IMG/VR virus record: IMGVR_UViG_3300027754_000037
Length of the DNA: 64,000 nucleotides
Direction: 5' to 3' (one strand)
Origin: a virus
Lineage: Duplodnaviria; Caudoviricetes
A program made the position numbers and the translations under genes. Within the stretch, counting starts at the first letter, position 1; the number at the start of each line of letters is the position of its first letter. The notes beneath the pieces were generated by a model, which was not told the origin of the DNA, did no database searches, and saw only the letters and a program-made list of their open reading frames with translations. Below are positions 6,469-61,365 of the stretch, piece after piece.

Positions 6469-7950
6469 ATGTTGAGATTTAGAGATTATCGCAACAACTC
6501 GAGGGGCGTTGAGCTCTACGAGGCAGAAGTCGCTTCTGATCCGGCAATAAATGCAGCAATTGAAAAAATTGTTGATGACTGGATCGGTGAATTAAAGAGC
6601 GAACTTCTAAGTGGAGAAGGACTTAAAACACCCGGATTGTGGGATCGTTTCAAAAATTCTCTTGCCAATTTCTGGCATGGTGCCTATAGCGACAAAAATC
6701 CCTACCGTCATAGGAATATGTACGGCAATCTCGGTGCAACTACGGAATCTGTTGACAATAGGCTGTCTCTGGATGAATATAAAATTCTAAGAGAATGCTG
6801 TGATCTGCTCGAAGAGGAAGTCAAAACAGCAGCGCCAGCAACAGACCAGAATTCAAAGCTGAAGCTTGTTCAGATCATTAACAAACACGCCAAAAACTTG
6901 AAAGACAGATTGATCAAGGTTTTGACGGGAGCATATGTTCCTGCTCTAAAAAAATTCCATATGCCTTCTTTGAGCTCCTTCCCCCGAAAGATAGAACCCA
7001 TCACTCCTCCCTCAGATACAGTAGACCCAAGCGCAAAGCCCGACACAGAGGTAGAAAAAGAACCTACTGAAGAACCAAAAGAATTTAGTTACACCGAACC
7101 ACCAACCCAAGGAATTGCATGGGCTTCTTTAAATGCTCGTCAAAAAATGGCTTGGAATAAATATGGTGGTGGTGCAGTATCAAGAAGTGAACGCCATAAA
7201 GGAAAATTCCCGTTGCAAGGAAGATTCCCGTTGCCTTGGATTCTTCGTCTAGGAGATCCTAGAAAAGATATGCTTTCTTTGAATACTTCAAGATCGCTTA
7301 TTCGAGATAAGAGACTCGAACTCGATTCGGATTTGATTAACTCCAAAGAAAAACTAGAATCTCGTGTTGAACATTCCAAGACTATTTTTGCAAATAGGAA
7401 GAAGCGTTCTGCCAAGCCAGATGCAGAAATGCCTTCAGAGCCACTTGCTGACACGCCCTCTCCAGAAAACAAAAAGCGTAAACAGCCTCGTCCAGATGTT
7501 GAAACCCCATCTTCCGATGCTGAAAAAATATCTGCTGATTTAGGTCGCCCAGAAGACTCAGAATCAGAAGCTCCCGATGTTGCTACGACTTCTGATTTCA
7601 GAGATGAATCTGAAGAGACCGAAGAAGATAAAGCAACAAATACGCTAAATCGTCTTGTAACCGACTGGTCTGTTGAAGAAGAAAGAAAAAAATTAATCGA
7701 GACTGCAAGAAAAATGAATCTTGACAATTTAAAGGATGAAATAATTAAAATGCTTCAAGCCCATGTTGATGCAGAGCCAGAAGGCGACAGTAAAACTTAT
7801 CATCAAAATGAATTAGATAAAGTAAAAGTACAAAATATTGGAAAAATTGAGGAATTAGACAAGACAGCACGCCTTCTTCTTGGCATTCTGCCTACTTTTG
7901 AAGCCAGAAAGTATTTTGTCAATAAATTCAGACAATTAGTTCATGGCTGA
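6469..7950 (+). CDS. Hypothetical, possible internal virion protein
   Basis: 493 aa, AAGGAG SD, N-terminus MLRFRDY, GLWDRFK motif, P/E/D-rich linkers. Confidence 0.7.
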   Translation: MLRFRDYRNNSRGVELYEAEVASDPAINAAIEKIVDDWIGELKSELLSGEGLKTPGLWDRFKNSLANFWHGAYSDKNPYRHRNMYGNLGATTESVDNRLSLDEYKILRECCDLLEEEVKTAAPATDQNSKLKLVQIINKHAKNLKDRLIKVLTGAYVPALKKFHMPSLSSFPRKIEPITPPSDTVDPSAKPDTEVEKEPTEEPKEFSYTEPPTQGIAWASLNARQKMAWNKYGGGAVSRSERHKGKFPLQGRFPLPWILRLGDPRKDMLSLNTSRSLIRDKRLELDSDLINSKEKLESRVEHSKTIFANRKKRSAKPDAEMPSEPLADTPSPENKKRKQPRPDVETPSSDAEKISADLGRPEDSESEAPDVATTSDFRDESEETEEDKATNTLNRLVTDWSVEEERKKLIETARKMNLDNLKDEIIKMLQAHVDAEPEGDSKTYHQNELDKVKVQNIGKIEELDKTARLLLGILPTFEARKYFVNKFRQLVHG

Positions 7951-8351
7951 TTTTTTTGAAGCATTTTCCCCATGTTTTGCTGTGCCTGCTTTTGTAAAGC
8001 AGCAAGCATGGAAGGATCAACAAACTGCATCGGTGGTTGCGCTGCTGGAGCAGGAGCTTGTTGAGGAGCCTTCTTCACCTCTTCAATAATTTTCTGGTAA
8101 TTAGGATCATCTTCAGTAATCATTTGTTCTTCTACGATTCCAACAATGTATTGCATGGAATAAAAGTTTTTACAATTTGTTAAGTGATGTTTCGTGAAAA
8201 CACCATCTTGGTCAATTGCTTCAACAATTCCTGTGAAGAACTCAGCAAATTGTTGGTCAGGAAAACCTCCCTTGTTAACGCCAACCGTTAATATTGTGCA
8301 AATTTTACCCACAAATGTGCTACGAAGATTTTCCAATGATGAAGAAAGCAT
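7941..8351 (-). CDS. Hypothetical protein
   Basis: 136 aa, Q/P/A-rich C-terminus, GAGG SD. Confidence 0.7.
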   Translation of the reverse strand: MLSSSLENLRSTFVGKICTILTVGVNKGGFPDQQFAEFFTGIVEAIDQDGVFTKHHLTNCKNFYSMQYIVGIVEEQMITEDDPNYQKIIEEVKKAPQQAPAPAAQPPMQFVDPSMLAALQKQAQQNMGKMLQKNQP

Positions 8352-8398
8352 TTTATACCTCGGGACATAAATATTGAGTCATTTTAAAGGAGCGATGG

Positions 8399-8614
8399 AT
8401 GTCTAGCAATTATAGTGAAGTTGCGCCTCCCGGTTGGAGCGGTACTGTCAAGGCCATGAAAAAAAATAAAGAGATCGATAATCCCTACGCTCTCGCATGG
8501 TACATGAAGAACAAAGGCTACAAGCACCATCACAAACCAGAGAAGAAGAAAAAAGACGAGAGCGTTTTTCAGCACAAGTCTTTCATCGAATGGATTAGCG
8601 CCAAATATCGCTGA
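8399..8614 (+). CDS. Small basic hypothetical protein
   Basis: 71 aa, AAGGAG SD, CATAAATA at 8366..8373; NPYALAWYM motif. Confidence 0.7.
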   Translation: MSSNYSEVAPPGWSGTVKAMKKNKEIDNPYALAWYMKNKGYKHHHKPEKKKKDESVFQHKSFIEWISAKYR

Positions 8615-12928: not shown

Positions 12929-13244
12929 TTTGCATCTCTTGGTTATCAGGCAAATCAAAACTCTGTGACTTTTTCTTCTGAATATCTTCAAGTTTGCGCT
13001 TTTCGTTCATGAGCTCATTTTCGATATTCTGTAATACATTTACAGAGCTTTGCGAAGATACAAGCTTGTTTTCTTTTCTCTCCAGCCTTTGCTTTTGCCT
13101 GCTGCCTCTCTTGCTCTCCACATTTTCGACAACCTGCAAAGCCTTGCTCAATAAACCTCTGACTTCTTGCAAAGCAAAATCTTCAGGGATGTTTTTTAAG
13201 GCTTGTAAAATACAAATTTTTAATCCAGCCGTGTTATTTTTCAT
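12915..13244 (-). CDS. Hypothetical coiled-coil protein
   Basis: Likely start MKNNTAG with AAGG SD. Confidence 0.65.
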   Translation of the reverse strand: MKNNTAGLKICILQALKNIPEDFALQEVRGLLSKALQVVENVESKRGSRQKQRLERKENKLVSSQSSVNVLQNIENELMNEKRKLEDIQKKKSQSFDLPDNQEMQNVFG

Positions 13245-14214
13245 TTTGCCCTTTCTTAACCAGTTCAAGCCAACGAACTGGTGCATCTTCTACTAAATGA
13301 TAACTCAACATATCGCCTTCGTGTAACGAACTGATGAGATACTCCTTAGGCAATTTAACACGCCAATAGTCAATATTTTCATCAATAATCATATTGGTCA
13401 GAGTAGTTCCTTCTGGGAGCATGGTTTTATATCCCAAAGCTATTTCCTTCTTTTTTTGCTCAAACAATCTTCTCTTTGCAGTAGGTTGAGGCATGTACAA
13501 AGAAATAATTTGTTTATAGTTTGGATTTTCCTGCAATTTTTTCATCAAAATTTGGTACTGAGTGCTGACTCTATCGGGTAAATTATTGCTTACAAAATTC
13601 TCAGCTTTAAATCCTTGATGCGTATGAGTTAATGTAAAAAGGGCAGGATAAATTCCATTAATTTTGACCAACATGGAATCTACAATCAAGCCATCCTCTG
13701 GCAGAATTGCTTCTAACTCAATTGAATTGCTTAATTCCAATTGCTCGGTAATCATTTCGAGCTTTGCCACAACCTGATTAAAAAGAATATTGCATTCTGT
13801 AACAAGACTGTTTACCACTATATCGACATCTATAGGACCAAAACTTTCTCCGAGATGTTTGGCTTCAAAGTTTTGAATCAACTCTTCAACTACAGCTAAA
13901 TTTGCTGAATTTATTCCATGAATTTTGACCCATGATCTACAACGAGTCATATTCTTCTCTAAACTGTTTATGCTTCCAGATTTAGCAGCTATGCAAAATG
14001 CTTCTATATACGGATAGGCAATTGATTCAAGGTTTTTCTTGATTTTATTTACATCGAGAATATTTTTGACCATATCCGTTGCATCTTGGTTCTTAAGAAT
14101 CAAGGACGAAAAGTTTGCCAAAATGTTTTCTCGATAATTTTGACAACAGCATCTTATTTTGCACCGAGATTCTTGTTTTTCACGAAGGAAATCTGCAAGT
14201 TTTTTTATTGGCAT
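13234..14214 (-). CDS. Hypothetical protein
   Basis: Likely start MPIKKLADFL; follows terminase on the same strand. Confidence 0.65.
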   Translation of the reverse strand: MPIKKLADFLREKQESRCKIRCCCQNYRENILANFSSLILKNQDATDMVKNILDVNKIKKNLESIAYPYIEAFCIAAKSGSINSLEKNMTRCRSWVKIHGINSANLAVVEELIQNFEAKHLGESFGPIDVDIVVNSLVTECNILFNQVVAKLEMITEQLELSNSIELEAILPEDGLIVDSMLVKINGIYPALFTLTHTHQGFKAENFVSNNLPDRVSTQYQILMKKLQENPNYKQIISLYMPQPTAKRRLFEQKKKEIALGYKTMLPEGTTLTNMIIDENIDYWRVKLPKEYLISSLHEGDMLSYHLVEDAPVRWLELVKKGQNEK

Positions 14215-16066: not shown

Positions 16067-16119
16067 GGTCCACCTTACTCTATATAAAGAGCCATCTTAT
16101 ATATCAAAACGGGAGCAAT

Positions 16120-19159: not shown

Positions 19160-19319
19160 CCTGCTTAAAATCAAAATAACTCCAAGTTTCTGCTGATAAA
19201 CCCATATCATACACAGGAACAACAATTGTAGATTTAAACGAAAAAGGCAAGTTGTGTATCTTTACACAGCTTGCCCAATCGTTTGATAGTAATTTTTTCC
19301 ATGCTTCATATGAGGGCAT
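19107..19319 (-). CDS. Small hypothetical protein
   Basis: GAGGA SD; N-terminus MPSYEAWKKL; 53-bp convergent overlap. Confidence 0.55.
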   Translation of the reverse strand: MPSYEAWKKLLSNDWASCVKIHNLPFSFKSTIVVPVYDMGLSAETWSYFDFKQAKAQAQARCTGLADHFQ

Positions 19320-24209: not shown

Positions 24210-24244
24210 AAACCCGCCCTAAAAAGGCGGGTTTTTATTTTTTC
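24210..24244. terminator. Terminator between convergent genes
   Basis: AAACCCGCC-CTAAAAA-GGCGGGTTT followed by T-rich run. Confidence 0.8.
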
Positions 24245-24468
24245 TTGTCGCAATTACAGTCTTTTTTCATATAGCGAATCTTGTTTTTGCGGTTTTTTGC
24301 TGTAATTGGGAGTTCATTGTCCGAATATGTGGGAAATGCTCCCGGTGCAATCATTCTCTTGGCAACTCCATCGCCACCATCGCCCTCGTCCTCCACACTA
24401 GAAGGATCGTTGGCGCTCCCGCCAAACCACTCTTTTTTGTTCAGATAATCAAGGAAAGATTGCTTCAT
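24235..24468 (-). CDS. Small protein with CTS-like N-terminus
   Basis: MKQSFLDYLNKKE; basic C-terminus with CNC. Confidence 0.6.
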   Translation of the reverse strand: MKQSFLDYLNKKEWFGGSANDPSSVEDEGDGGDGVAKRMIAPGAFPTYSDNELPITAKNRKNKIRYMKKDCNCDKKK

Positions 24469-24509
24469 AATGAATATATAGTTTGCCGACATATTTTACA
24501 AGGAGGGTC

Positions 24510-26236: not shown

Positions 26237-29200
26237 ATGGCTCCGTTATGGTCTGATTTTTTCAAGCTTTTTTCCTACTCCAGCGAAGCCGATCCGCTCG
26301 CTCGCCGTAAAGATCCCCGTCAATTCAGTTCCGCAGGCATCAGCCAACCAGAAGCTATCGGCGCAGATATCAACAATCCGCAGAATGTAAGCGGAGGACT
26401 CAGCAGCTACCGCCAAACAAATGACATGATTGACACCACTACGCTGTCAAATCGTGCTATGCGTTATAAAGAGTATGAAAGACTTCGTAATGTTCCAGAA
26501 ATCGAAGCTGCCATGACCGTCTTTGCAGACGAATCTTGTGTTGCCGGTAACACTAAAATTGCCACTCCCTTTGGATTTATCACCATCAAGGAGCTCACAG
26601 AAAAAAGAGCCGACGAAAGATTTCTTGTTTATTGCTATGATTTTGAGAAAAAAGACTACACCTTGGGCTGGGCATACTCTCCACGAATCGTAAAGCGTGC
26701 CCCCACCATCACAGTCGTCCTCGATGATGGATCAACATTCACAGCCACAGAAGACCACCGTGTTCTGAAAAAAGACGGTACTTGGTGCGAAACAGGAGAC
26801 CTTGAAGTCGAAGATGAACTCATGCCCTTTTACCGTGTGAAAGCCAGCCAAAATCACACCAGACTGAGAACAGCACAATACCCCAGAATCTACACCAAAA
26901 ATAAAGGCTGGATTCACGAAAGACAATTTGTAGACGACTGGAGAACAGGCAAAATAACTCCAAAAATGCAAGCCGTAAATCTGGGATGTAGACTATACGC
27001 AGATGGACTTAAAACTGTACAAGTCGCTGAAAGACTTGGACACGATTGGAGAACAGTTGGAGAATGGCTCGCACGAGAGGGATTTACTACCAAGGAAATT
27101 AAAAGACTCAATCGATTTGAAAAAGAAAGAAGAATCATAGGCATCGAACCCGGACCAGTTCAGGATGTCTACGACCTCTCCGTCGAAAAACACATGTGCT
27201 TTGCCACCGATAGCGTCATTCTCCACAACTGCCAGAAAGACGAAAATGGCAATATTATCAAAATTACCACGGAAAACCAAGATATAAAAGATGAGATTGA
27301 TTTTCTGCTCATGAACCGCAAAATGCTCAACCTCAACAGAAATGCATGGGTTTGGTTCAAAAATCTCTGCATTTCAGGTGACTATTTTGTTGAACTCGTA
27401 ATCAATCCAGAAAATCCCAAAGAAGGCATATACAGAACCATGCCTCTCCCATGCGAAACAATGTATCGCATCGAAACAGTCAAAGGCAAAATTATTGAAT
27501 ATCAACAAAGCAAAGAAGGACCAGATTATCAAGCCATCGTGCGTGGCTCCGTAAACGATATGACCGATACAGAACTCAACCAAACAACAGCTATACGCTT
27601 TGCACCAAGCCAAATCGTTCACTTCCGAATCGGTGATGATCGCAAAACCTTCTATCCCTACGGCCAATCCCTAATCGAACCAGCCCGTGGACCAGCACAT
27701 AGTCTCAGAATGCTAGAAGATGCTATGGTTGTGTATCGACTTTGCCTTGTTGGCGATACAGTCATAAGTTTACAAAACGGAACAAAAAATATTCGTGATA
27801 TCAAGGTTGGCGACACAGTCCTATCCTACGATTGCGACGGAAAATTGATTCCAACCAAAGTCGTTTGTCATGTTAACAACGGAATTCAAAATGTTTTCTC
27901 AGTCAATAGCAAGCACATTGAAATCGTTGGAACAGCAACACATCCCTTACTCGTTAATCGTCAAGGCGTATTGCAATATGTCGATATTCAAGATTTGATT
28001 CCAAAAACCGACAAGCTCATTTGCGTTACAAGAAATGACAATGTATTGACGCAAATACCCAAGTCTACTAAAGAACCTTGGGCCAAACTTTCCTCAGAAA
28101 TGCGAACCGCATTTAGAAATGGAAATTATGAAAATATTTCCAAACTTCTCAAAAATTGCAAAGTAAAAGATAACAGAGCCAAACAGTTTTTGTATGCCGA
28201 AAGCAAAGCCTTGCCTATCAATTTAGCCAAAAATGTTTGCGATATTTTTGAACTCGATCACTCAAAACTCATCATCACTAAAAAAAGTCAAGTTTATTCT
28301 GAAAAAATCAATCTTCCAAAATTTGTTGATGAAGAATTTGCAAGATTGTTTGGATTCTTGATTGGGGATGGTTCCATTTCAAGAAAATTATGCAGAATTG
28401 TTTTTTCTGCTGGCGAAAAGCAAGAAGTCAATCAAAAGTATGCAGGCCTGCTGCAAAAGTATTTTGGTAAGGTATCATACAACCCAGATAAACGAGGAAA
28501 ATTTGGTAATTACTGCGTCTCATCCGCAAGAGGCGCTGAAATTTTCTTGGAATTGGGCTACATCCCCGGAGCAAAAAACAAAAGAATTCCACAATGGGTG
28601 TTTACATCCAACCCCGAAATTCGCAAAGCTTTTGTAGAAGGAATTAGTGATGCTCATGGTTGCCAAAGAACAACATTCAAGGGAACTTGGTTTTCCACGA
28701 TTGAAATTTGCAACAAAGAACTTGTGAAAGACATCAAAAGCGTTTGGGCATCAATCGGTCTTTCTTCTGGTAAAATTAAAGAAAGACAAAGAAAAGGTGG
28801 TCACGAAATCACCAAAAATAGTTTGATGAAATCTACCACATCACATTCCATAACAATAAGCGAAAAAGAATTGCCTCAGTATGAAAATGTTTGTAGCATC
28901 ACGCCCTGTGGTCAAGAAGAAGTTTATGACATCACGGTAGACAATGAACTACACAATTTCATAGCAAACGGTACACCTACCCATAACACACGGGCACCTG
29001 AAAGAAGGGTTTTTTATATTGATGTTGGCCAATTGCCTCCTTTCAAAGCTGAAGCTTTTATGGACCGCATCAAGGATCAATTCCGCAAAAGAAAAGTCAC
29101 TAGCAACAGCGGAAGTCCCGGAGCAAACCAAGTTGAAGAAAAATGGATGCCTCCAGCACAAGACGAAGACTACTGGTTGCCAATTCGTCCAAATAGCAAC

Positions 29201-30013
29201 ACAAGAATCGATACACTACCCGGTGCTGAAAATCTGGGAGAAATCGATGATGCAGTTTATTTCCGAAATAAACTCCTCACGGCTCTCAACTTTCCCAAGA
29301 ATTACTTCAACAATGAAGACCCCGGCGCTACAAGAATTACCCTCTCAGCACAAGATGTTAAATTTGCTCGCATGATCGAGAGACTTCAAAGCTACTTTGA
29401 AGACGGAATCATGGAAATAGCAGAAAGACACCTTCAACTCAGAGGATACCCAGAAGATAGCTACAAGGACCTCCGTATCAAAATGACCCCTCCAAGCGAT
29501 TGGAGAGAACTCTCAAGAGCAGAAGTTGTAAATGCCCGATACGGCAATGCCGGAACACTCAAAGGCAGTCAGTTAATGTCAGATTTTGACATCATGACAA
29601 AAATCCTCAAATATAACCAAGATGATGCCGACGAAATGCTGGCACGCCTCAAAATCCAAAAGCTTGAAGACCTCAAACTGCAAGTATTGGCCCAAAATCC
29701 ACAACTTCTGGGTGTTGGAATCCCAAGTGCCGAAGGCCAAGACCAAGAACTTGGTGCAGAAGCAGGTGGACCTAACTCTATGCCAGAACCCGGAGGCGAA
29801 GGAACTCCACCTGAAGGAGAACTTCCTCCTGAAGCACCGCCCGAGGGCTTGCCAGTACCATCCGAAGGACCGCCATCAGAAAAGGCTGGTACGGCAGAAC
29901 CAGTCAGCATCGCTGAACCCACAGATGATGATATCAAGAAATATGATCTGGAATTACAAGGTTTCGATATTGAATCCGACCTTGAAGACATCGACTTCAG
30001 CGTGAGGAGCTAA
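26237..30013 (+). CDS. gp20: Portal vertex protein (T4 gp20-like) with two inteins; about 612 aa after splicing
   Basis: EDAMVVYR-RAPERRVFYIDVG, EDYWLPIR, IDTLPGAENL..IDD..YFRNKL...L.FP, E.KFARMIERLQ. Confidence 0.95.
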   Translation: MAPLWSDFFKLFSYSSEADPLARRKDPRQFSSAGISQPEAIGADINNPQNVSGGLSSYRQTNDMIDTTTLSNRAMRYKEYERLRNVPEIEAAMTVFADESCVAGNTKIATPFGFITIKELTEKRADERFLVYCYDFEKKDYTLGWAYSPRIVKRAPTITVVLDDGSTFTATEDHRVLKKDGTWCETGDLEVEDELMPFYRVKASQNHTRLRTAQYPRIYTKNKGWIHERQFVDDWRTGKITPKMQAVNLGCRLYADGLKTVQVAERLGHDWRTVGEWLAREGFTTKEIKRLNRFEKERRIIGIEPGPVQDVYDLSVEKHMCFATDSVILHNCQKDENGNIIKITTENQDIKDEIDFLLMNRKMLNLNRNAWVWFKNLCISGDYFVELVINPENPKEGIYRTMPLPCETMYRIETVKGKIIEYQQSKEGPDYQAIVRGSVNDMTDTELNQTTAIRFAPSQIVHFRIGDDRKTFYPYGQSLIEPARGPAHSLRMLEDAMVVYRLCLVGDTVISLQNGTKNIRDIKVGDTVLSYDCDGKLIPTKVVCHVNNGIQNVFSVNSKHIEIVGTATHPLLVNRQGVLQYVDIQDLIPKTDKLICVTRNDNVLTQIPKSTKEPWAKLSSEMRTAFRNGNYENISKLLKNCKVKDNRAKQFLYAESKALPINLAKNVCDIFELDHSKLIITKKSQVYSEKINLPKFVDEEFARLFGFLIGDGSISRKLCRIVFSAGEKQEVNQKYAGLLQKYFGKVSYNPDKRGKFGNYCVSSARGAEIFLELGYIPGAKNKRIPQWVFTSNPEIRKAFVEGISDAHGCQRTTFKGTWFSTIEICNKELVKDIKSVWASIGLSSGKIKERQRKGGHEITKNSLMKSTTSHSITISEKELPQYENVCSITPCGQEEVYDITVDNELHNFIANGTPTHNTRAPERRVFYIDVGQLPPFKAEAFMDRIKDQFRKRKVTSNSGSPGANQVEEKWMPPAQDEDYWLPIRPNSNTRIDTLPGAENLGEIDDAVYFRNKLLTALNFPKNYFNNEDPGATRITLSAQDVKFARMIERLQSYFEDGIMEIAERHLQLRGYPEDSYKDLRIKMTPPSDWRELSRAEVVNARYGNAGTLKGSQLMSDFDIMTKILKYNQDDADEMLARLKIQKLEDLKLQVLAQNPQLLGVGIPSAEGQDQELGAEAGGPNSMPEPGGEGTPPEGELPPEAPPEGLPVPSEGPPSEKAGTAEPVSIAEPTDDDIKKYDLELQGFDIESDLEDIDFSVRS
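26537..27229 (+). mobile_element. Intein 1 (231 aa) in portal
   Basis: S|CVAGNTKI block A, T.DHRVL block B, VYDLSVE..H..F...VILHN|C; no LAGLIDADG. Confidence 0.92.
27743..28987 (+). mobile_element. Intein 2 (415 aa) with LAGLIDADG domain
   Basis: L|CLVGDT, TATHPLL, GFLIGDGS and EGISDAHG, VYDITV...HNFIANG..THN|T. Confidence 0.95.
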
Positions 30014-30267
30014 TGGATCAGACACCCTTGCAACAACTCATGAGCCTTGTATTTAAAAACAAAAGACTCGTCCAGCAGTCAACACAAGCTGGATGTATCT
30101 TTTGTTGCAAGGTATACGAAAGCAAAGACATCACAAAATACACGGATAATGATCAAACATGCCTATGTCCAAACTGCGGTACTGATGCCGTGCTGGGAGA
30201 CATGGGAGGCTACACAATCAACGAGGAAAATCTAAAAAAAGCCAATCAATACTGGTTCAAATACTAA
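30013..30267 (+). CDS. Small zinc-binding protein
   Basis: GCIFC...TCLCPNCGTDAVL. Confidence 0.65.
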   Translation: MDQTPLQQLMSLVFKNKRLVQQSTQAGCIFCCKVYESKDITKYTDNDQTCLCPNCGTDAVLGDMGGYTINEENLKKANQYWFKY

Positions 30268-30623
30268 TTTGTATCGCTAGAGTAACCGTCCGCTGAATGA
30301 GGGGCCAAAGCATCAGGCTCCTGACCAGTCTTGTCTCCAAGTCCCTTCTCCGTGAAGTGAGGATTCATTTTTGGACGCATATCCTGAAAACTATCCAACT
30401 TGTGACGAGTCAATATGGCCTTGATATCGGGATCGTTGCGGTATTGGTTCAGAAAACTTATAATAATTTCAGGCCTTGTGTCGATAATTCTTTTCAAAGC
30501 ATCCATAGCTATATCTAAGTTCTGTTTCGACTGAGGATCATAACCATTGTGGTCCTTGGAGCTTGACTCACCGTCATATGCTGCCACTTCCTTCTGGACA
30601 ACAAACTCCTCAAATGTTTTCAT
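30264..30623 (-). CDS. Hypothetical with CTS-like N-terminus
   Basis: MKTFEEFVVQKE after GAGG SD. Confidence 0.7.
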   Translation of the reverse strand: MKTFEEFVVQKEVAAYDGESSSKDHNGYDPQSKQNLDIAMDALKRIIDTRPEIIISFLNQYRNDPDIKAILTRHKLDSFQDMRPKMNPHFTEKGLGDKTGQEPDALAPHSADGYSSDTN

Positions 30624-30823: not shown

Positions 30824-32659
30824 ATGAAAAGAACACTAATCAGCTTCGATAACTTCAAGAAAATCGAAGAAAATTCACTAACAAAAGCTCAACAGGAATT
30901 GATTGAAGCAGCAGAAACGCTTGCAAAAACCTTGGGACTCGAAAGTCTCGAACTTCATACATTCGGTGAGTCTGATGTTACCTACCAGTCCAACGATGGT
31001 AATTTTATCCACGCCACATACACCATGACTGACAACGAAGTTTTTCTGGAAAACATCCAGATGCTCGTTATCGAAGAGGAGTCCGAGAAGAGCTTCGCTC
31101 GTGAAACAATCAGTAATATGATCGACAATATCCTTGAAAATAAGGATCACGAAGCAAATAGCATGTTCGAGACCTACATGAGTATGCCCTTCGTTCGTCG
31201 TGAATTGATGGTCAACGAGGCATTCAAGGTCACAATTTCCAAGCCAACAGGCAAGAAGTCTCCCCTCAAGGGTCGCAAGCAAGACCGCTCACTCGTTGCA
31301 AAGCGTGCCCGTGCTCGCAAAGCAACCATTGCTGCAATGAGCCCAAGCGAGCGCAAGAAGCTTGGCCGTCACCGTGATCAAGCTTCCGGCAAACTTAGCG
31401 GTAGCACTAACCCCCGCTGGAGAGTCTACGCTCGCAAGATCAAGCCAAAGACCATGAAAGAATGGTGCACGATGTGCGAGAATGTACTCGGATACATCGA
31501 CTTCAAGACCACAGGCGCTGTCTTGAACGAGTCCGCTATCAAAACCGACGAGCGTGGAAATGTCGTAGCAATCGCCCTGCCCACCCAAAACAAGCGCAAC
31601 GAGGGCAAGATTATCTCCATGAACTTCAAGACGATGGACACCGAACTCAAAGTCCTTCGCTCCAGCATGAAGAAAATCAGCGAAGACCAAATTTTCGTCA
31701 AGGCTATGGCCGACCTCAAGCGTTATAACAACATCTCTGACAACACCGCTCTTGAGGAAACCCTCGAAGCTATCGTTAGCCGTTGGCCCAACCTGCTGTA
31801 CATAACCGAGACAGAACTGGCCGAGCAAATCACACTCGCACTCGAGTCCGCAAGCCTCAGCAACTATGACGATGCAACCTGCTCCTTCATGGCCGAAGCC
31901 ATCCTCCGCACGGCCCACAACGCCTTCACAGACAAGGTCCGCAAGATCGGACAACTCGCTGGAGCCCAAAGCGATGTGAGCTCCGAATGCAGAGATTGCG
32001 AAGATTCCTACAAGGAATTCTCCAACGCTGCCCAACACTTGTTCAACCAGCTTGACGAAAGTGCTACAAACGAACTGAATATCTTCTCCGACCTGTACAA
32101 GGCCCTACACGAGGTTCACCGCATCGCTGCCGAAACCGGCGACGAGGCAACCCGCATCGAAGTCGCTGACTTCATGCGTGAGTGCTCATCCATCCTGAAC
32201 GGCAACAGCGAAACCGACATGGAACTAGCCGAGGCAATCGCTGATTACCTCGCTGACATGCTCGAAGCTTCCGAAGAGCACGAAGAAGGATGGGGACACG
32301 GAGTTGAGGTTTCCGCCACAGGCGAACACCCCATGACCAAGTGGAACGCAAAACAAAACGCAGTCGCCAGCAACAACACAGGTGGCTGGAAGGACGCTGC
32401 TCCAGCCAGCGATGGCAAGAACTACAACAAGGGACACGCCGATGAAATGGGGTACAGCGCCCTGTCAAACTTGGCAAACGATGACACTTGGCCCAACATG
32501 AGCAATCCTTATGTGCCCAAGGCAGTCAACGCAAAGATGAAGGAAAAGAATGTTGTTGACGACAGCGAGGGTCTTGGCGACGACCGCTTCAGCAACACTT
32601 GGCCCGGTCTGAATAACCCAATGTCACTCAAGCCAGTTATGCCCAAACCTGTTGTTTAA
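30824..32659 (+). CDS. Putative prohead core protein
   Basis: Between portal and protease (T4 gp67/gp68 position); Glu-rich helical with a basic RARARK segment; C-ending codon bias; start MKRTLISF. Confidence 0.55.
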   Translation: MKRTLISFDNFKKIEENSLTKAQQELIEAAETLAKTLGLESLELHTFGESDVTYQSNDGNFIHATYTMTDNEVFLENIQMLVIEEESEKSFARETISNMIDNILENKDHEANSMFETYMSMPFVRRELMVNEAFKVTISKPTGKKSPLKGRKQDRSLVAKRARARKATIAAMSPSERKKLGRHRDQASGKLSGSTNPRWRVYARKIKPKTMKEWCTMCENVLGYIDFKTTGAVLNESAIKTDERGNVVAIALPTQNKRNEGKIISMNFKTMDTELKVLRSSMKKISEDQIFVKAMADLKRYNNISDNTALEETLEAIVSRWPNLLYITETELAEQITLALESASLSNYDDATCSFMAEAILRTAHNAFTDKVRKIGQLAGAQSDVSSECRDCEDSYKEFSNAAQHLFNQLDESATNELNIFSDLYKALHEVHRIAAETGDEATRIEVADFMRECSSILNGNSETDMELAEAIADYLADMLEASEEHEEGWGHGVEVSATGEHPMTKWNAKQNAVASNNTGGWKDAAPASDGKNYNKGHADEMGYSALSNLANDDTWPNMSNPYVPKAVNAKMKEKNVVDDSEGLGDDRFSNTWPGLNNPMSLKPVMPKPVV

Positions 32660-37880: not shown

Positions 37881-38771
37881 TTATGACTGTTGAACTATCT
37901 GCTGCTGTGACTGCATCTGTGGCATCTGTTGTTTGTTAGCGCCTGTTGCTTGAGGCTGCGACTGCATCTGTGGCACCCCAGAAACCTGTTGTTGGTTCAT
38001 TCCCGCTCCTTGAGGTGGTGTCCAAGTGACACCTTGAAGTCTTGGGAAGTGGTCAGCACCTAGGAAAAGCAAGCCGCCATTTTTTTTAGCAAATGGCACA
38101 ATCTGATCCTCTCTATTTTTTTCTGCTGCGTCTCCAAGTACGCTGAGTGTATTTCCCTTTTCTTCCCACATTTTATTTTCTGCTTGCAGAAGCCATTGTT
38201 TGAATTCAGCAGCTTTATCTCCTTTGAATTCCTGCTGCTCGAAATCTGGGAATACTTCTCGCACAACATCAAATATTTGTTTTATTTCTGCATCGCTTAG
38301 TTTTTTATTTACACCTTTATTTGCGAAAGTTCCAGCGCCGTTTGCTAGTGCGCTTCTGAGAGCATCGCCTATTGTATTTGAATTTTGGAAGTCGATCTTT
38401 GGTGAGTTCGTATCCCAATTAGCTTTAACGCTGGAGAAGACTGGTACACCGGCATGAAATCCGGGCATAGTGACATCGTCATCGTAGGAGCCGTTGTTTT
38501 TGGGGTTTTGGACACCCAGAACTTTTTCTAAATACGATTTTTCGGGACCGTTACCAAATTGTCCCTCTTCGCCTATGCCCTCATACCGATATCCATACTT
38601 CTCGCAGATATTTTTTGCATATTCTTTTGCGATGTTATCGGATGGTGGTGCAATTTTTGTGGTGCCGGGTTTATCTCCATGTGCTGATGGAATGATAATC
38701 GCATTGCCGACATAGGCGAAACCGTTTCCGGCTTGTTCGATCAAATATAGCCATTCTTTGAAATTCAGCAT
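37881..38771 (-). CDS. Hypothetical with CTS-like N-terminus and Q-rich tail
   Basis: MLNFKEWLYLIE; no SD; CATAGATA 4 nt upstream. Confidence 0.75.
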   Translation of the reverse strand: MLNFKEWLYLIEQAGNGFAYVGNAIIIPSAHGDKPGTTKIAPPSDNIAKEYAKNICEKYGYRYEGIGEEGQFGNGPEKSYLEKVLGVQNPKNNGSYDDDVTMPGFHAGVPVFSSVKANWDTNSPKIDFQNSNTIGDALRSALANGAGTFANKGVNKKLSDAEIKQIFDVVREVFPDFEQQEFKGDKAAEFKQWLLQAENKMWEEKGNTLSVLGDAAEKNREDQIVPFAKKNGGLLFLGADHFPRLQGVTWTPPQGAGMNQQQVSGVPQMQSQPQATGANKQQMPQMQSQQQIVQQS

Positions 38772-39744: not shown

Positions 39745-39987
39745 ATGAATAAAGCTATGAAATACAAGCATGTGTTATATCCTGTGACCAGCCAAGGTAA
39801 GTTGAGGCAGCTTCTCAGATTTTATCAGTCTGATTTAGCATTTGGTAAAACTTCTAGAGACCCTAAAGAGGTAGCTGAGGTTTTGTTGTGGTTTGATAAT
39901 GAAAGTGCCAAATTCAAAAATTCAACTAAAAGGGTGTCGAGTCTTATTGCTGCTCTCTGGTCGCAGTATTGTCGGAGCAATGGTTAA
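39745..39987 (+). CDS. Hypothetical protein
   Basis: Track ORF 39718..39987; ATG candidates 39745 or 39757. Confidence 0.55.
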   Translation: MNKAMKYKHVLYPVTSQGKLRQLLRFYQSDLAFGKTSRDPKEVAEVLLWFDNESAKFKNSTKRVSSLIAALWSQYCRSNG

Positions 39988-41138
39988 TAGCCGCTTGACA
40001 GAAGACCTCGCACCCGCCAACCAGAAAGGTATCTCTTCACAACTATTTTGCCTAGGTCAGCGATAGCTTGGTTTACAACTTTCAAATACCTCTCCACAAG
40101 GACTTTCTTGCTGATATCTACAGATTTTTCTTTGTATAGCATATACATTGCCAGTACGGTATTGAAAGCTCCTATAGCCAGCAAAGTACCTCCCGACAAA
40201 GCTCCAGCAACTGCTGAGAAAGCAGCGCCAGCGACTCCGGCGTACTTCTCGATGCTTGTGAGGGCACTTGAGCTTTGAGGCTTATCTATAATCTCCTGAA
40301 TTTCTCCAGCAAGCAACCTAAACTTAGGATGTTCTTGGTCGATAAATCCTACTAACTCCTCTGTGCTCATATTGTTGATATTGCGCATGATGATTTGAGC
40401 TTCCCTCAAGTTGGCAGAGGGATTGCGTTGTTTGAGGAGCAAGTTTAAAAATTGTTCCAAGCCTTGAAGGGTGGGCTCACCGCTTGAAATTTGTTTCATT
40501 TGGCCTTGTTTCAAATCCATTTTTTTCTTGTCACCAAGGGCACGAAGATCATTCTTGATAGTATCCAAATCGCCGTCAAATTTCTTGGAAATTTTGTCGG
40601 TGCCAGTACGCTTTTCTGGTGTTGCCAACCAATTCTTATAAAAAATGGCAGCTTTATCGTACATTAAATTACGATAATCATTCAGATTGTAGGTCTCATC
40701 GAGTGCTTCTACGCTTTCAAATTTTCTGCCGAACCAGTTAGCAAGAATCCAATTCTTATAGCGAGCTCCCAAGGCTTTTTTATAGTTGTCTAGAGTTAAA
40801 GCAGCACGATAGTAAGCATCGCTTTCCTTATTTTTTTTGGAGTATGCACCGAGTGTTATGCTAATCATCTTGGCCAGCATGTCGTTAAGACCGCCGAGAA
40901 ACCTATTGGCGAGAAATTTCATGTCGGATTGTTTAAGTTTTGAATCAATTTTTGAAGGTGGAGGTGGTTCTGGCATGGGGACATCTTTAATTCCAGAGGC
41001 ATTTAGGGATGCTGCCTTATCATCGCCTTTGGCGTTAATGTCTTCTAATTGCAGTATTTGAATCTTTGACTCTCTTAGGTCAAAGTCATTGATGCTGAAG
41101 CATTCTTCGGTGTTGAGCCATTCTTTAAGATTAAGCAT
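39984..41138 (-). CDS. CTS-like protein with C-terminal Gly/Ala hydrophobic segment
   Basis: MLNLKEWLNTEE; TATAGATA 4 nt upstream; AGVAGAAFSAVAGALSGGTLLAIGAF. Confidence 0.75.
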   Translation of the reverse strand: MLNLKEWLNTEECFSINDFDLRESKIQILQLEDINAKGDDKAASLNASGIKDVPMPEPPPPSKIDSKLKQSDMKFLANRFLGGLNDMLAKMISITLGAYSKKNKESDAYYRAALTLDNYKKALGARYKNWILANWFGRKFESVEALDETYNLNDYRNLMYDKAAIFYKNWLATPEKRTGTDKISKKFDGDLDTIKNDLRALGDKKKMDLKQGQMKQISSGEPTLQGLEQFLNLLLKQRNPSANLREAQIIMRNINNMSTEELVGFIDQEHPKFRLLAGEIQEIIDKPQSSSALTSIEKYAGVAGAAFSAVAGALSGGTLLAIGAFNTVLAMYMLYKEKSVDISKKVLVERYLKVVNQAIADLGKIVVKRYLSGWRVRGLLSSGY

Positions 41139-41166: not shown

Positions 41167-41607
41167 TTAAGAGATTTGTTGGTCTGATGTTTTAGGTTTT
41201 CTGATCATGGTATCTTGGTCATCTCTCCGCAGGGAGTTGAAGCCGAATGATTTATAAAAGTTTTTCAATTTCCTTGAGGGAATTCTCTCATCAGTTTTTA
41301 GAGGAACTGCGTTGAGTTCCAGCCAAGTATTTGTCTCATCTGCCATCCTTGTGATTTTTTCCATGAATCTTTGGCCTGCGCCTGTTTTGGTTGGTACGGT
41401 GTGAATTTCTTCGATATGGATGCCACCGGGTTTCATTACCGATGAATTGATTTTGAACATTACAACGGTTTCGCCGTCTGTGTAGTAGTAATTGTGGCCA
41501 AAGGGATTCATTTGTGCATTTACGCTTGCAAAGAATCTACTGATAAATTGTTGGGAATTTGCGGGATTTACTGTTTCAACTGTTAGCCAATCTTTGAAAT
41601 TTAACAT
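41167..41607 (-). CDS. GNAT-fold acetyltransferase with CTS-like N-terminus
   Basis: IEEIHT..TKTGAGQRFM (motif A), LELNA, L.NFYKSFGF. Confidence 0.75.
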   Translation of the reverse strand: MLNFKDWLTVETVNPANSQQFISRFFASVNAQMNPFGHNYYYTDGETVVMFKINSSVMKPGGIHIEEIHTVPTKTGAGQRFMEKITRMADETNTWLELNAVPLKTDERIPSRKLKNFYKSFGFNSLRRDDQDTMIRKPKTSDQQIS

Positions 41608-43755: not shown

Positions 43756-44028
43756 ATGAAGTCATTTGATGAATATCTGGTTGAGACTGCTGCAAAAAAG
43801 GGTGAGAAGAAGAAGTCTGACAAGAGCAGCAGCAATAAAATCATGGCTATGCAGGACATAGCGAACCATCTAAAGTCAATCTTGGCCGATTATGATATTT
43901 CGGTGCGAAGGTTTGTTTGGGATAGGTTGACGAGTGCCAAGGGGCATGAGTTGATGGAAAAGATTTTGCGTAATCCCAAGACTTATTTAAGCATGAGTGA
44001 GTTTACTCAACTGGTAACCAAGAAGTGA
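43756..44028 (+). CDS. Small protein with CTS-like N-terminus
   Basis: MKSFDEYLVE. Confidence 0.75.
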   Translation: MKSFDEYLVETAAKKGEKKKSDKSSSNKIMAMQDIANHLKSILADYDISVRRFVWDRLTSAKGHELMEKILRNPKTYLSMSEFTQLVTKK

Positions 44029-44721: not shown

Positions 44722-45060
44722 TTAGCATCGACATTTCCATACTCTTAGTGCCGCATTGATTTTACTCTTTGGGTCATTGGCTGTTTTGGCAGATGTATTG
44801 TGTTTTCGCATTCCGCACATGCGACTGCAAAATGATTTGCGGCGACTTTTCGTTTTGTCGGACATCTTGCTTACGCCACCTTTGCGTTCTGCCTCACGCT
44901 TGGTTTCAATACCAGCGTGGATGCCGAGTTTTTTAGCGTAGGCTGGTTTAAGCCCGCCTTCTGGGTGATTCTTTTTGGGGTTATAGCCTTTATATGGCTT
45001 CTTTCCTTCATGTAGGAAATCTTCATCTCGTTCTTGCAGCCATTCGGAAAAAGATTGCAT
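44722..45060 (-). CDS. DUF6321-like basic protein with CTS-like N-terminus
   Basis: MQSFSEWLQE; RRKSFCSRM.GM...DPKSKINAALRVWKC; CATAAATA at 45083..45090. Confidence 0.7.
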   Translation of the reverse strand: MQSFSEWLQERDEDFLHEGKKPYKGYNPKKNHPEGGLKPAYAKKLGIHAGIETKREAERKGGVSKMSDKTKSRRKSFCSRMCGMRKHNTSAKTANDPKSKINAALRVWKCRC

Positions 45061-45113: not shown

Positions 45114-45317
45114 ATGAAATTTGCAGACTGGTTATCAAGATTGAACGAGATGATGTCCTCTAAAGGCAAGGGTCATCCATTCAAACCCGGACCTAGGGAT
45201 GTAAAGCCAAAGCCACATGATTTAAAATTGTGTGGTCAGGGAGGAGGGCCGGGGCCTTGTGAGGGTGGTGGAGGTGGAGGTGGAGGTGCTATGCCTGCTG
45301 CGCCTCCTGCTGGTTAA
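45114..45317 (+). CDS. Small Gly/Pro-rich protein with CTS-like N-terminus
   Basis: MKFADWLSRLNE; poly-Gly. Confidence 0.65.
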   Translation: MKFADWLSRLNEMMSSKGKGHPFKPGPRDVKPKPHDLKLCGQGGGPGPCEGGGGGGGGAMPAAPPAG

Positions 45318-47872: not shown

Positions 47873-48409
47873 TTAATCCTCCAAGATACCGGCATCGTTG
47901 AGTGAGCGTGCAAGTTTTATTAGGTGCTTGCACATACCCGGAAGTTCGAGCGGATTGCTTGAACCCGGATTTGTTTTCGCCTCGTACTTCTTCCTGACTG
48001 TGCCGTACAGCGACTTATCTTTTTTGTCTTCAAAATTGAAACGATAATAAAAATCGCTACAGTTACAACGAAGGGCTACTTCGTTGTTGGCATTAAGTTT
48101 GTCGAAAAAGTAATTGCGTCCATCGCTTGCGACTATTTCCACCCAATTCCGATTATCTTTGGAGTTGTGATAATTCACTTTTTTGAAGAGAATTATTGGG
48201 TTGTATTCCTTACCATTTCCTTCGTTCTTCGCCAGACCTTTGACGAATAATGTTCTGACACCCTTGTAGGGTAGCCAATTCATTTGTTTGATAACAATTT
48301 CATCGATTGAGTGTTGTCTTTTAGCTGTTTTGGGAAAAGCCTGTACTGTAGATTTGTATAAATCGTACAGGTTGGATTCCTTGATCAACAGATAATCGTT
48401 GAAATTCAT
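47873..48409 (-). CDS. SWIM zinc-finger protein with CTS-like N-terminus
   Basis: MNFNDYLLIKE; RCNCSDF...MCKH; TGTAAATA 4 nt upstream. Confidence 0.75.
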   Translation of the reverse strand: MNFNDYLLIKESNLYDLYKSTVQAFPKTAKRQHSIDEIVIKQMNWLPYKGVRTLFVKGLAKNEGNGKEYNPIILFKKVNYHNSKDNRNWVEIVASDGRNYFFDKLNANNEVALRCNCSDFYYRFNFEDKKDKSLYGTVRKKYEAKTNPGSSNPLELPGMCKHLIKLARSLNDAGILED

Positions 48410-53212: not shown

Positions 53213-53419
53213 ATGAGGTCTTTTAAAGAATATCTATCAGACAAGCTTTCACATGACCAGCCTCCTAGTGCTGGCGATTTGGGAGACAATCACTCCAATG
53301 CTGACAGGAATTTTGGTCGTAGTGGCGCTAAGTCGAAGAATGTGATGTCCGGGGGGTCTAAGTCGATTAGTGATTTGAATCCAGATCGTTTATTTGGCAA
53401 AAAAAGGTTTAAAAAATGA
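53213..53419 (+). CDS. Small protein with CTS-like N-terminus
   Basis: MRSFKEYLSD; CATAGATA at 53201..53208. Confidence 0.7.
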   Translation: MRSFKEYLSDKLSHDQPPSAGDLGDNHSNADRNFGRSGAKSKNVMSGGSKSISDLNPDRLFGKKRFKK

Positions 53420-53721
53420 ATTTTCAAAGATTGTGGGAAAACATGAAGTTGGGGGAAGAGAAAAAGCAGTCTCCCGATGACAAGGCCATGTCTGCAATCA
53501 GAACTGGTTTGGGTTTGCGTGAAGACTTTTGGGATGATTTCAATCTGATTGTGAATAACGCAGAGGGGTTATCAGCCCTGTTGGACATACCTGTGGAGAA
53601 GATATCCACATGGCGCAGCAAAGTTGAAGAGGTTCTTGACAAGGTTCGTGAGGCAGATGGCCAAAGCGAAGTGGGCAAGAACAAGAAAATTGTTAAAACT
53701 GGAATATCGGTGGGAGAATAA
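53416..53721 (+). CDS. Hypothetical protein
   Basis: 101 aa, coupled by ATGA. Confidence 0.7.
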   Translation: MNFQRLWENMKLGEEKKQSPDDKAMSAIRTGLGLREDFWDDFNLIVNNAEGLSALLDIPVEKISTWRSKVEEVLDKVREADGQSEVGKNKKIVKTGISVGE

Positions 53722-54104
53722 TGAAAAATTTCCTTGAATTTATGCAGATGAAAGAAGACGATAACCAATCCCAAATTGCACCGGGGGGTCAAACTCCCTT
53801 GGGTCACGCATCTGGCGCTGGAGCACTACCTCAGACTGCTCCCGGTTCTCAACACGAGGAAAAAATCATAGAGGAATTGGGCAATTCTTTGCGCCGTGTT
53901 CTGGAAGAGAAATTATTTCCAGCTTTGGAAAAAAGCCATTTAAGCAAGACTAGTGCCATGAAACTGCTGCAAACAATAGTGAGTGAGGTTGCCAACAAGT
54001 TTGGATTGAGCGCATCGGCAGTTCAACAGACAGGCAAGAATGCTATGACTACGAATTCTGAGCCTCGGATGCCTGCTCCGAATCAACCAACGGCTGCTGG
54101 CTGA
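53721..54104 (+). CDS. Protein with CTS-like N-terminus
   Basis: MKNFLEFMQMKE; TAATG overlap. Confidence 0.7.
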   Translation: MKNFLEFMQMKEDDNQSQIAPGGQTPLGHASGAGALPQTAPGSQHEEKIIEELGNSLRRVLEEKLFPALEKSHLSKTSAMKLLQTIVSEVANKFGLSASAVQQTGKNAMTTNSEPRMPAPNQPTAAG

Positions 54105-57680: not shown

Positions 57681-57713
57681 TAATTGTTGCGTTTATTTAA
57701 ATAACGAGGCGAA

Positions 57714-60158: not shown

Positions 60159-60213
60159 TTTTTTCTCTTGGTGATTTTTTAACATAATAACAAAAAAAAT
60201 TCTTAGGACAAAT

Positions 60214-60246
60214 AAAAAAAAGGGACGAGAATAATTCTCGTCCCTT
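60214..60246 (-). terminator. Terminator of 60268 gene
   Basis: 12-bp stem AAGGGACGAGAA / TTCTCGTCCCTT with T-run on minus strand. Confidence 0.8.
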
Positions 60247-60267
60247 AAAATTGTTTTTTTAAATTTT

Positions 60268-61365
60268 TTACCAGTCAGAACGAATAGCTTGAGTCAAATT
60301 GTTTACATCGACGGGTGTGAACAATCCATCGCTGTACTTGGTGTCTGCATTGCCAACCATGCTGTGGACGCTGTCCCACCAAGCTTGCTCTTCATTCTTG
60401 GATTCAGCCTTCTTGTGCTTCTTGCCCTTGTGCTTCTTGTTTCTCAGCATCGCAAAGTCGCCTGCGTCAATCTTGCCGTTTTTGTTCATATCCATTTTGC
60501 TTTGACCGCCCTTGAGCATCTTTTTCTTGCTCTTCTTTGCAAATTTAAGCTTGTTTTCATCCTCATCCTCATCCTCATCCTCATCCTCATCCTCATCCTC
60601 ATCCTCATCCTCATCCTCATCCTCATCCTCATCCTCATCCTCATCCTCATCCTCATCCTCATCATCGTCTTGCTGATCATCATCATCGGACCAAGCTTCG
60701 GCCTTCATCTTCTTTGTGCCGTATTTCTTTGACTTCTTTTTGCTCATCATTTTAGGAGATTCTTCATCATGATCTTCTTCATCATGATCTTCTTCATCAT
60801 GATCTTCTTCATCATGATCTTCTTCATCGTGATCTTCTTCATCATGGTCCTCGTGACCCTCTTCGTCATGATCTTCTTCGTCATGATCTTCTTCGTCATG
60901 ATCTTCTTCGTCGTGAACTGGTTTACCGACACCCTTCATGCCTTTATTTTGTTTTACACTATCCATGTCCTCATGTTCTTCATCATCATGATGATCTTCT
61001 TCTCCTTGTCCCATGTCCATCTTCTTCTTGGATTTCATGTGAGATTTCTTGCTGGACATAGCACCGCACTTAGAGCACTTCTTTTTAGACATTGAGCCAC
61101 ACTTAGAGCAGACGCTGATGTCGCCATCATCGTCGTGGCCGACAACATCGACATCTGCATCGTCAGAAGGTTTATCTTTGGCAGAGGAGGGCTTCACGAT
61201 CTCTCCATCACCTGTAACCATCTTCTTTTTCTTCTTCTTTTCAGACTTGACTTCTTCAAATCCATACTGAGATTGAATGCCAAGATTGCTGACCCTGCCC
61301 AATCCAAGGTTAAAGCTGGGAAGAATGGACTCATTCAAAGTCTTCCATTTTGTGTACGATAACAT
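60268..61365 (-). CDS. Acidic/basic low-complexity protein with CTS-like start and EF-hand-like loop
   Basis: MLSYTKWKTLNE; CSKCG x2; (DHDEE)n; (ED)17; DMNKNGKIDAGDF. Confidence 0.75.
   Translation of the reverse strand: MLSYTKWKTLNESILPSFNLGLGRVSNLGIQSQYGFEEVKSEKKKKKKMVTGDGEIVKPSSAKDKPSDDADVDVVGHDDDGDISVCSKCGSMSKKKCSKCGAMSSKKSHMKSKKKMDMGQGEEDHHDDEEHEDMDSVKQNKGMKGVGKPVHDEEDHDEEDHDEEDHDEEGHEDHDEEDHDEEDHDEEDHDEEDHDEEDHDEESPKMMSKKKSKKYGTKKMKAEAWSDDDDQQDDDEDEDEDEDEDEDEDEDEDEDEDEDEDEDEDEDEDENKLKFAKKSKKKMLKGGQSKMDMNKNGKIDAGDFAMLRNKKHKGKKHKKAESKNEEQAWWDSVHSMVGNADTKYSDGLFTPVDVNNLTQAIRSDW
60557..60658. repeat. (TCATCC)17 perfect tandem repeat
   Basis: 102 bp, encodes alternating Asp/Glu on minus strand. 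Confidence 0.95.
60761..60915. repeat. 15-bp tandem repeat (about 10 imperfect copies)
   Basis: TCATGATCTTCTTC(A/G) units encoding DHDEE on minus strand. Confidence 0.9.

Follow-up and report, generated by a model that had tools for sequence, protein, structure and literature searches.

At least 11 unrelated genes in a 64-kb stretch of phage DNA encode a short N-terminal leader, M-[KLR]-[TSN]-F-x-[DE]-[WYF]-[LVIM]-x(1-4)-E, that closely resembles the capsid-targeting sequence (CTS) of bacteriophage T4 and, by analogy with T4, is probably a propeptide removed by a gp21-like protease. The stretch analyzed here (64,000 nt, hereafter the window; IMG/VR record IMGVR_UViG_3300027754_000037) is part of a 239,391-bp contig from a freshwater metagenome (JGI 3300009181), and the source phage is an uncultivated jumbo phage of the T4 superfamily. 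Genes are referred to below by the position of their start codon in the window.

Frequency and conservation of the leader

The original prediction, made from the sequence of the window, had listed about 19 proteins with CTS-like N-termini and had conceded that some of the matches were loose. A start codon is present at all 19 positions, with the sequences as quoted (ATG at 18 of them, GTG at 52430). Eleven of the open reading frames (ORFs) match the tight pattern M-[KLR]-[TSN]-F-x-[DE]-[WYF]-[LVIM], 24468 on the minus strand with one extra residue, and 10 of these 11 strong leaders have a glutamate at residue 10–13. Of the other eight claimed starts, which are looser, about five or six are plausible variants and two or three are doubtful (19319 and 52430, and perhaps 6469); the count of about 19 is thus too high.

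Two search patterns were used to quantify the enrichment. The first, M-x-x-[FYW]-x-[DE]-[FYW]-[LIVM], was fixed beforehand from the T4 CTS alone. It has seven six-frame matches in the window, all of which start ORFs of 68–296 aa, and in 200 dinucleotide-preserving shuffles the mean was 0.33 matches overall and 0.02 at ORF starts. This pattern is thus about 350-fold enriched at ORF starts over the shuffles. The second, looser pattern, which was written after the data had been seen, has 12 matches in the window, 10 of them N-terminal (1.38 and 0.10, respectively, in the shuffles), and for 10 of the 12 an upstream stop is no more than 22 codons away. Within called genes, the five-residue core was counted 23 times, about 10 of these right after a start methionine. 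When the pattern was widened to any hydrophobic residue, the gain was limited to the N-terminus of the portal and two ORFs that are unconvincing.

In addition to the 10 N-terminal matches in the 64-kb window, the looser pattern has 19 in the 595-kb genome LR756511, eight in the 533-kb relative G001, and three in the first 150 kb of T4, where ipI is a variant missed by the pattern. XacN1 (385 kb) and a T4-like cyanophage (197 kb), the controls without the leader, have one N-terminal match each. At the rate of these control genomes, 0.22 N-terminal matches would be expected in 64 kb, and the probability of at least 10 is 6e-14. The window is a hot spot of leader genes that adjoins the head genes. 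Further leaders lie just past its end (MMWIKFSEWVELRE, 254 aa, and MAFEFVEWLAKRD, 235 aa), together with a paralogous pair with the starts MKTFVKW and MRTFVQW.

About 1.5 kb past the end of the window (L174:14049-14584), the adjacent paralogues MKTFVKWAEKTKKELPVY and MRTFVQWAGKTKKELPVY are leader-like, without an acidic residue 6. Amid the leader genes of the hot spot there is a free-standing LAGLIDADG_2 homing endonuclease gene (45697-46269), which might aid the shuffling of cargo cassettes.

From the window, 80 related loci, G001, and LR756511, 73 distinct N-terminal leaders were collected, 89% of which have a glutamate at residue 9–13 and 70% an [LIVMF]-x-E motif, versus 51% (p = 2e-5) and 38% (p = 0.002), respectively, of 39 internal matches to the same pattern. 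Position by position, the clade leaders yield the consensus M-K-T-F-K-E-[YWF]-[LV]-K-[EL]-K-E; M-K-T-F-K-E-[YWF]-[LV] was also obtained from a set of 56 clade leaders. In the T4 record (NC_000866), ipII and ipIII start with MKTYQEFIAE and ipI starts with MKTFKEFTSTTTPVSTITE (MKTFKEF...), so that the clade consensus is identical to T4 IPI over the first seven residues and the proposed likeness to the T4 CTS is borne out.

In every orthologue family, the first usable start is the methionine directly before the motif. In the families of 30623, 24468, 43756, 45114, 48409, and 41607, the leader and the glutamate are kept while the bodies diverge (in related phages, to 26–50% identity), which is what one would expect if a removable leader and a cut site preceded a separate mature protein. 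The 30623 protein starts with MKTFEEF, and in its family of 16 sequences M1, K2, F4, and E12 do not vary and Y7 hardly does; the bodies are 26–74% identical, compared to 83–94% for the capsid proteins of the same contigs. The conserved glutamate of the 24468 family is always followed by [NW][YF]GGSA. Among the 48409 orthologues, M1 and E11 never change and every mature part begins with S/T-S/T/N, whereas the stretch between M1 and E11 differs in length. The homologues of 41607 keep MLNFK[DK]W[LF], which is followed by indels before the folded domain.

At the conserved residues, the codons vary: phenylalanine is encoded by TTT or TTC, the acidic residues by GAA, GAG, GAT, or GAC, and the aliphatic residue of the leader by CTA, CTC, CTG, TTA, GTT, or ATG. 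Relatives with GC contents from 41 to 53% keep the amino-acid pattern with different codons. Therefore, selection acts on the peptide. By contrast with the leaders, the protein bodies are mutually dissimilar, as had been claimed: an all-versus-all BLASTP comparison of the 19 proteins, trimmed of their first 15 residues, yielded no pair at E < 0.07. Searches of the leader proteins against Pfam and PHROGs gave almost nothing, the exceptions being a DUF6321-like C-terminus in 45060 and weak matches to PHROGs of unknown function. For many leader proteins of the related phages, the window encodes no homologue.

Head genes and the likely role of the leader

The window contains a T4-type head module (Table 1). 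Its prohead protease shares 28% identity with T4 gp21 (E = 1e-23), and the catalytic blocks GELDHP, SSRG, and DAV can be aligned; by analogy, this protease is presumed to be the enzyme that removes the leaders. The Glu-rich protein encoded between the protease and capsid genes occupies the position of T4 gp22 and is presumed to be the scaffold on which the leaders dock. It is kept in 79 loci, has 18 [LIVM]xE sites (6 per 100 aa), and has no family match in Pfam or PHROGs. The major capsid protein is 29% identical to T4 gp23, and its putative propeptide contains LNE10, LLE25, LLE41, and MNE48, all located before the Gp23 domain and before the alignment to mature T4 gp23. From these sites in the capsid propeptide and the scaffold-like protein, the cleavage specificity of the local protease looks the same as that of T4.

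That the T4 CTS is MKTYQEFIAE and that gp21 cuts after a glutamate, both given as established in the original prediction, was confirmed from the T4 record and the literature. The T4 CTS is cut once, and about 1000 molecules of internal proteins, which are highly basic, or of any fused foreign protein, stay in the head (PMC8442874). Propeptides are removed by gp21, which cuts after glutamate (PMC5694885). In T-even phages, the internal proteins are diverse defence proteins that have only the CTS in common, by which they are carried into the scaffolding core (PMC3012670).

The system described here is like that of T4 in several respects: an N-terminal leader of 10–19 residues with nearly the same sequence and, in most cases, a terminal glutamate is found on unrelated, fast-evolving, mostly small and basic proteins in a phage with a head module of gp20, gp21, gp23, and gp22-like proteins. 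It differs in number, since T4 has three such proteins plus the uncharacterised gp61.1, whereas there are at least 11 strong leaders in 64 kb here and 19 in the 595-kb relative. The position of the glutamate in the window leaders varies between residues 10 and 13, and among the cargo are proteins with a predicted GNAT fold, with a SWIM finger, and with a hydrophobic tail, as well as a polyacidic one. Furthermore, the phage is an uncultivated jumbo phage known from sequence alone, with a capsid protein only 29% identical to gp23.

Other T4 propeptides that are removed by gp21, those of Alt, gp24, gp67, and gp68, have the same M-x-x-hydrophobic-x-E-hydrophobic-hydrophobic-x-E architecture as the window leaders. 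Alt starts with MELITELFDE and gp24 with MAKINELLRE, with the same spacing of hydrophobic and acidic residues; however, leaders of this type have aliphatic residues where the window leaders have aromatic ones. Among the proteins that T4 injects are host-restriction inhibitors (IPI*) and an enzyme that modifies the host (Alt). Alt is a precedent for an enzyme that is packaged and injected; no Alt-type ADP-ribosyltransferase was found among the cargo of the window. The propeptides of the ejection proteins of phiKZ-like giant phages such as SPN3US are similar in that many head-internal proteins are cut after glutamate by a gp21-related protease and that the propeptides are thought to target the proteins to the prohead, but they are mostly longer than 100 residues, with an A/S-x-E cleavage motif and no short shared leader (PMC5694885).

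As an aside on T4 itself, gp61.1 (54 aa, L108:18966-19130) starts with MKTFKEFIKE, a near-perfect CTS, and may be a fourth T4 protein that carries one.

We consider it likely that the leaders are T4-type capsid-targeting propeptides removed by the gp21-like protease. Many of the leader genes would be expressed late, some of them perhaps from mRNAs that start directly at the gene. The leader would fold into a short amphipathic helix, one face of which would be formed by F4, W/Y7, and L8, and this helix would dock the protein on the scaffolding core during prohead assembly, that core consisting of the gp22-like protein and possibly also the 611-aa protein encoded at 30824. The gp21-family serine protease would then cut after the glutamate at residue 10–13, as well as at [LIVM]-x-E sites in the capsid propeptide and the scaffold. 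The mature proteins would remain in the head with the DNA, enter the host upon infection, and have an early role there, either in countering host defences or in taking over the host.

Several points weigh against this explanation. Targeting, cleavage, and ejection in this uncultivated clade are all argued by analogy with T4. The strict [LIVMF]-x-E motif is present in only six of the 11 strong leaders, and 53213 has no glutamate after the motif. In some orthologues of 48409 (MSEIAE..., MGMNRNLKE...), the glutamate is retained but the aromatic motif is missing, so that the motif may be dispensable for this protein. Because XacN1 and the cyanophage have an S77 protease without this leader, the leader is not an obligate companion of the protease. 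Two proteins would be odd cargo for a DNA-filled head, namely, 41138, with its hydrophobic C-terminal segment, and the 365-aa polyacidic protein 61365. Finally, the leader ORF 53721 has no orthologues in the related loci and is absent from the JGI gene calls.

The orthologues without the aromatic motif and the genomes with protease but no leader could also be accommodated if the leader were an address or recognition tag for some other process, with a convergent likeness to the T4 CTS. Short amphipathic helices at the N-terminus are binding elements of a generic kind, and the partner could be a modifying enzyme, as for ribosomally synthesized and post-translationally modified peptides, a membrane or intracellular compartment, another part of the virion, or a system of regulated degradation. 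We regard this as unlikely, given a consensus identical to T4 IPI over seven residues and ending in glutamate as in T4, and the location within the head module of the only clade-wide and best-conserved leader family, that of 30623. Moreover, no radical-SAM or other candidate modifying enzyme was found in the approximately 65 ORFs scanned with Pfam, and no leader resembles a signal peptide.

The upstream regions of the leader genes bear on a second alternative. A box resembling the T4 late promoter, TATAAATA/CATAGATAA, mostly CATA[GA]ATA, is located at most 48 nt upstream of six of the 11 leader genes versus 10 of 76 other genes (p = 0.004). For five of the 11, namely, 38771, 41138, 41607, 45114, and 53213, the box ends 4–5 nt before the ATG and a Shine-Dalgarno motif is missing, an arrangement found for two of the 76 others (p = 2e-4). 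We infer, by analogy with T4, that these boxes act as late promoters, and their position suggests that the late mRNAs of the box-adjacent leader genes have no 5' leader region. Two further genes, 62722 (minus strand) and 23448 (plus strand), also have a box that ends 2–5 nt before the ATG and no Shine-Dalgarno motif.

With this arrangement, the conservation could in principle reside in the nucleotides, that is, in a promoter or 5' cassette or in an initiation element for leaderless mRNAs, and the peptide could be a by-product. The exact spacing of the box in the five genes and the nearly identical first eight codons of 38771, 41138, and 41607 would agree with this. Nonetheless, it appears highly improbable, because the wobble positions are free to vary at the conserved residues, orthologues at 41–53% GC keep the amino-acid pattern via other codons, at least five other leader genes have an ordinary Shine-Dalgarno motif and no box, and the box is found at an equal distance from the ATG in 62722, a gene without the motif. 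Although the pattern is short and its looser version post hoc, chance, compositional bias, and hidden paralogues with a common N-terminal domain can be excluded with hardly any remaining doubt because of the approximately 350-fold enrichment of the pattern fixed beforehand and the dissimilarity of the bodies, the modelled folds of which also differ (GNAT versus the beta-rich SWIM protein).

With the reading of the leaders as capsid-targeting propeptides, what is established and what is new can be separated. The principle of a conserved CTS on variable cargo is already established in the T-even phages. New are the retention of the CTS, almost letter for letter as judged by the clade consensus, in a distant clade of uncultivated jumbo-to-huge phages, as well as the scale (at least 11 in the window and 19 in the 595-kb relative), the kinds of cargo, and the arrangement of some of the genes directly behind a late-promoter-like box. 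No paper linking capsid targeting to huge phages, jumbo phages, or cyanophages was found in the open-access literature. A more far-reaching proposal, for and against which we see about equal grounds, is that the T4 CTS is an ancient portable address tag, nearly unchanged from T4 to phages of 240–600 kb, that is attached to dozens of unrelated proteins, including enzymes as well as a hydrophobic-tailed protein, and that some of these proteins are translated from leaderless late mRNAs. If so, the genome of a huge phage would suffice to predict the whole set of proteins that it injects, and any ORFan with the leader would be a candidate for an effector that acts early against the defences of the host.

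To our knowledge, the proteins that huge phages deliver together with their DNA are largely unknown, and almost none of these phages has been cultured. If the leader works as in T4, the delivered proteins could be listed from the sequence. This rule would span at least 382 related IMG/VR contigs and the curated 595-kb genome and would turn ORFans into testable candidate effectors. The retention of the tag across capsid proteins that are only 29% identical suggests that the putative receptor in the prohead core is conserved as well, and T4 might serve as a surrogate for packaging tests.

Cargo proteins and variant leaders

The features discussed are listed in Table 1. Overall, the strong cargo proteins are mostly small and, as calculated from their sequences, basic, like the internal proteins of T4; the mature parts of eight of the 11 strong members have a pI of 8.6–10.2.

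Table 1. Leader proteins, variant leaders, and head genes of the window (G001, 533-kb relative).
Feature	Position	Strand	Remarks
Strong leaders
77-aa leader protein MKQSFLDYLNKKE	24235..24468	-	orthologues MKSFVEWLKKLE followed by NFGGSA, and similar
119-aa leader protein MKTFEEFVVQKE	30264..30623	-	adjoins portal gene; clade-wide family, internal-protein-like
296-aa leader protein MLNFKEWLYLIE	37881..38771	-	ORFan; late-promoter-like box 4 nt before ATG
384-aa leader protein MLNLKEWLNTEE	39984..41138	-	hydrophobic C-terminal segment; promoter-like box 4 nt before ATG
146-aa leader protein MLNFKDWLTVE	41167..41607	-	predicted GNAT acetyltransferase fold
90-aa basic leader protein MKSFDEYLVE	43756..44028	+	orthologues MKSFDEFLTE, MESFKEYINE, MKTFGEYLTE
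112-aa very basic leader protein MQSFSEWLQE	44722..45060	-	C-terminal DUF6321-like domain
67-aa Gly-rich basic leader protein MKFADWLSRLNE	45114..45317	+	TATAAATA box 5 nt before ATG
178-aa leader protein MNFNDYLLIKE	47873..48409	-	invariant SWIM-type CxC...CxH motif
68-aa basic leader protein MRSFKEYLSDK	53213..53419	+	promoter-like box 4 nt before ATG; G001 orthologue MRLSFKDWLHE
127-aa leader ORF MKNFLEFMQMKE	53721..54104	+	GGGAG Shine-Dalgarno upstream; gene status less certain
Plausible variant leaders
326-aa protein, possible variant leader MPIKKLADFLRE	13234..14214	-	G001 orthologue starts MSSFAKYLE
611-aa head-module protein, N-terminus MKRTLISFDNFKKIEE	30824..32659	+	gp67/gp68 position; 3.4 [LIVM]xE sites per 100 aa
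101-aa protein, short variant leader MNFQRLWE	53416..53721	+	G001 orthologue keeps SFQKLWE
365-aa protein, variant leader MLSYTKWKTLNE	60268..61365	-	G001 orthologue starts MLSYKQWKMLNE; JGI start identical
Head module
Large terminase	14216-16066		part of T4-type head module
gp20-type portal	26237..30013	+	Pfam Portal_T4, Intein_splicing, LAGLIDADG_3, Hom_end
gp21-type prohead serine protease	32678..33337	+	Pfam Peptidase_S77 1.5e-24; PHROG head maturation protease
Putative gp22-like scaffold	34458..35357	+	299 aa, Glu-rich, predicted helical; between protease and capsid genes
gp23-type major capsid protein	35388..36824	+	Pfam Gp23 1.4e-86, from residue 56

For the cargo protein 41607, a GNAT fold is predicted. 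It has no Pfam match; its Atlas feature score to GNAT clusters is 0.95, and the AF2 model has a pLDDT of 79. The 22 best Foldseek matches of the model in the PDB are all GNAT proteins, with probabilities of 0.72–1.0 and E-values of only about 1e-3. The most compact superposition is that with the anti-CRISPR acetyltransferase AcrVA5 (TMt 0.70, rmsd 3.3 Å). In the homologues, TKTGAG-x-RF, a motif of the acetyl-CoA-binding Q/R-x-x-G-x-G/A type, is invariant. If the leader works as in T4, 41607, with its partial structural likeness to AcrVA5 in the model, would be among the candidate effectors. The claim that the cargo includes enzymes thus has one predicted GNAT fold in its favor; the HAD-like protein 52430, with its doubtful start and leader, does not add to it. 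The beta-rich AF2 model of 48409 (pLDDT 69) has no fold match in the PDB, and Atlas searches with the 296-aa protein 38771 and the 384-aa protein 41138 returned only unnamed viral clusters or chance-level scores.

For four of the looser claimed starts, 14214, 61365, 53416, and 30824, a variant leader is plausible, as judged from the N-termini of the orthologues. The variant leader MLSYxxWKxLNE is conserved among the orthologues of 61365, and SFQ[RK]LWE among those of 53416. The 61365 protein consists largely of the acidic repeats (DEEDH)n and (DE)n with Lys-rich flanking runs and has a mature pI of 4.5; mimicry of DNA or a counter-ion function would be conceivable. The 611-aa protein 30824 has no match in Pfam or PHROGs, and 72 orthologues keep MKRKLISFDAFKKIEE; it may be a component of the prohead core with a variant leader. 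The N-terminus of 50432 is at best a weak candidate for a variant leader. Two claimed starts were rejected. At 19319, the N-terminus does not fit the motif, and at 52430, the GTG is located 18 nt upstream of the JGI-called start and is, therefore, probably not the true start.

Source phage and other genes

Relatives of the capsid protein were found in 382 IMG/VR contigs, and the best 80 of these 382 are 83–94% identical, on contigs of up to 533 kb. In GenBank, the nearest record by capsid protein is LR756511.1 ('uncultured phage', 595 kb), with 81% identity, whereas the next matches, in a Microcystis phage, XacN1, and cyanophages, are only 32–34% identical. The capsid protein sequence thus places the phage in a large uncultivated clade. 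Megablast of the head region of the window against INPHARED returned no match, that is, no close sequenced relative.

The portal gene is split by an intein with a LAGLIDADG homing endonuclease, which spans approximately residues 500–917 of 1258. The portal N-terminus, MAPLWSDFF..., matches the broadened hydrophobic-x-acid-hydrophobic-hydrophobic pattern; phiKZ-like phages are known to process their portal, whereas T4 is not. The huge relatives have an additional S77 protease paralogue that has diverged and is encoded at a distance from the head module (G001:C1:238202-238600 and LR756511.1:242615-242986); it is 37–45% identical to the protease of the window over about 125–130 residues, which recalls the protease paralogue reported for SPN3US.

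Four further peptidases are encoded in the window (10488-11384, 16051-17253, 24483-25580, and 55235-56236): a weakly trypsin-like protein, an M28 aminopeptidase, an M14 carboxypeptidase, and an S8 subtilase. The N-termini of at least two of them resemble signal peptides or transmembrane segments. The window also contains a phage actin of the volactin family at 4952-5956 (Pfam PF25216, E = 6e-64).

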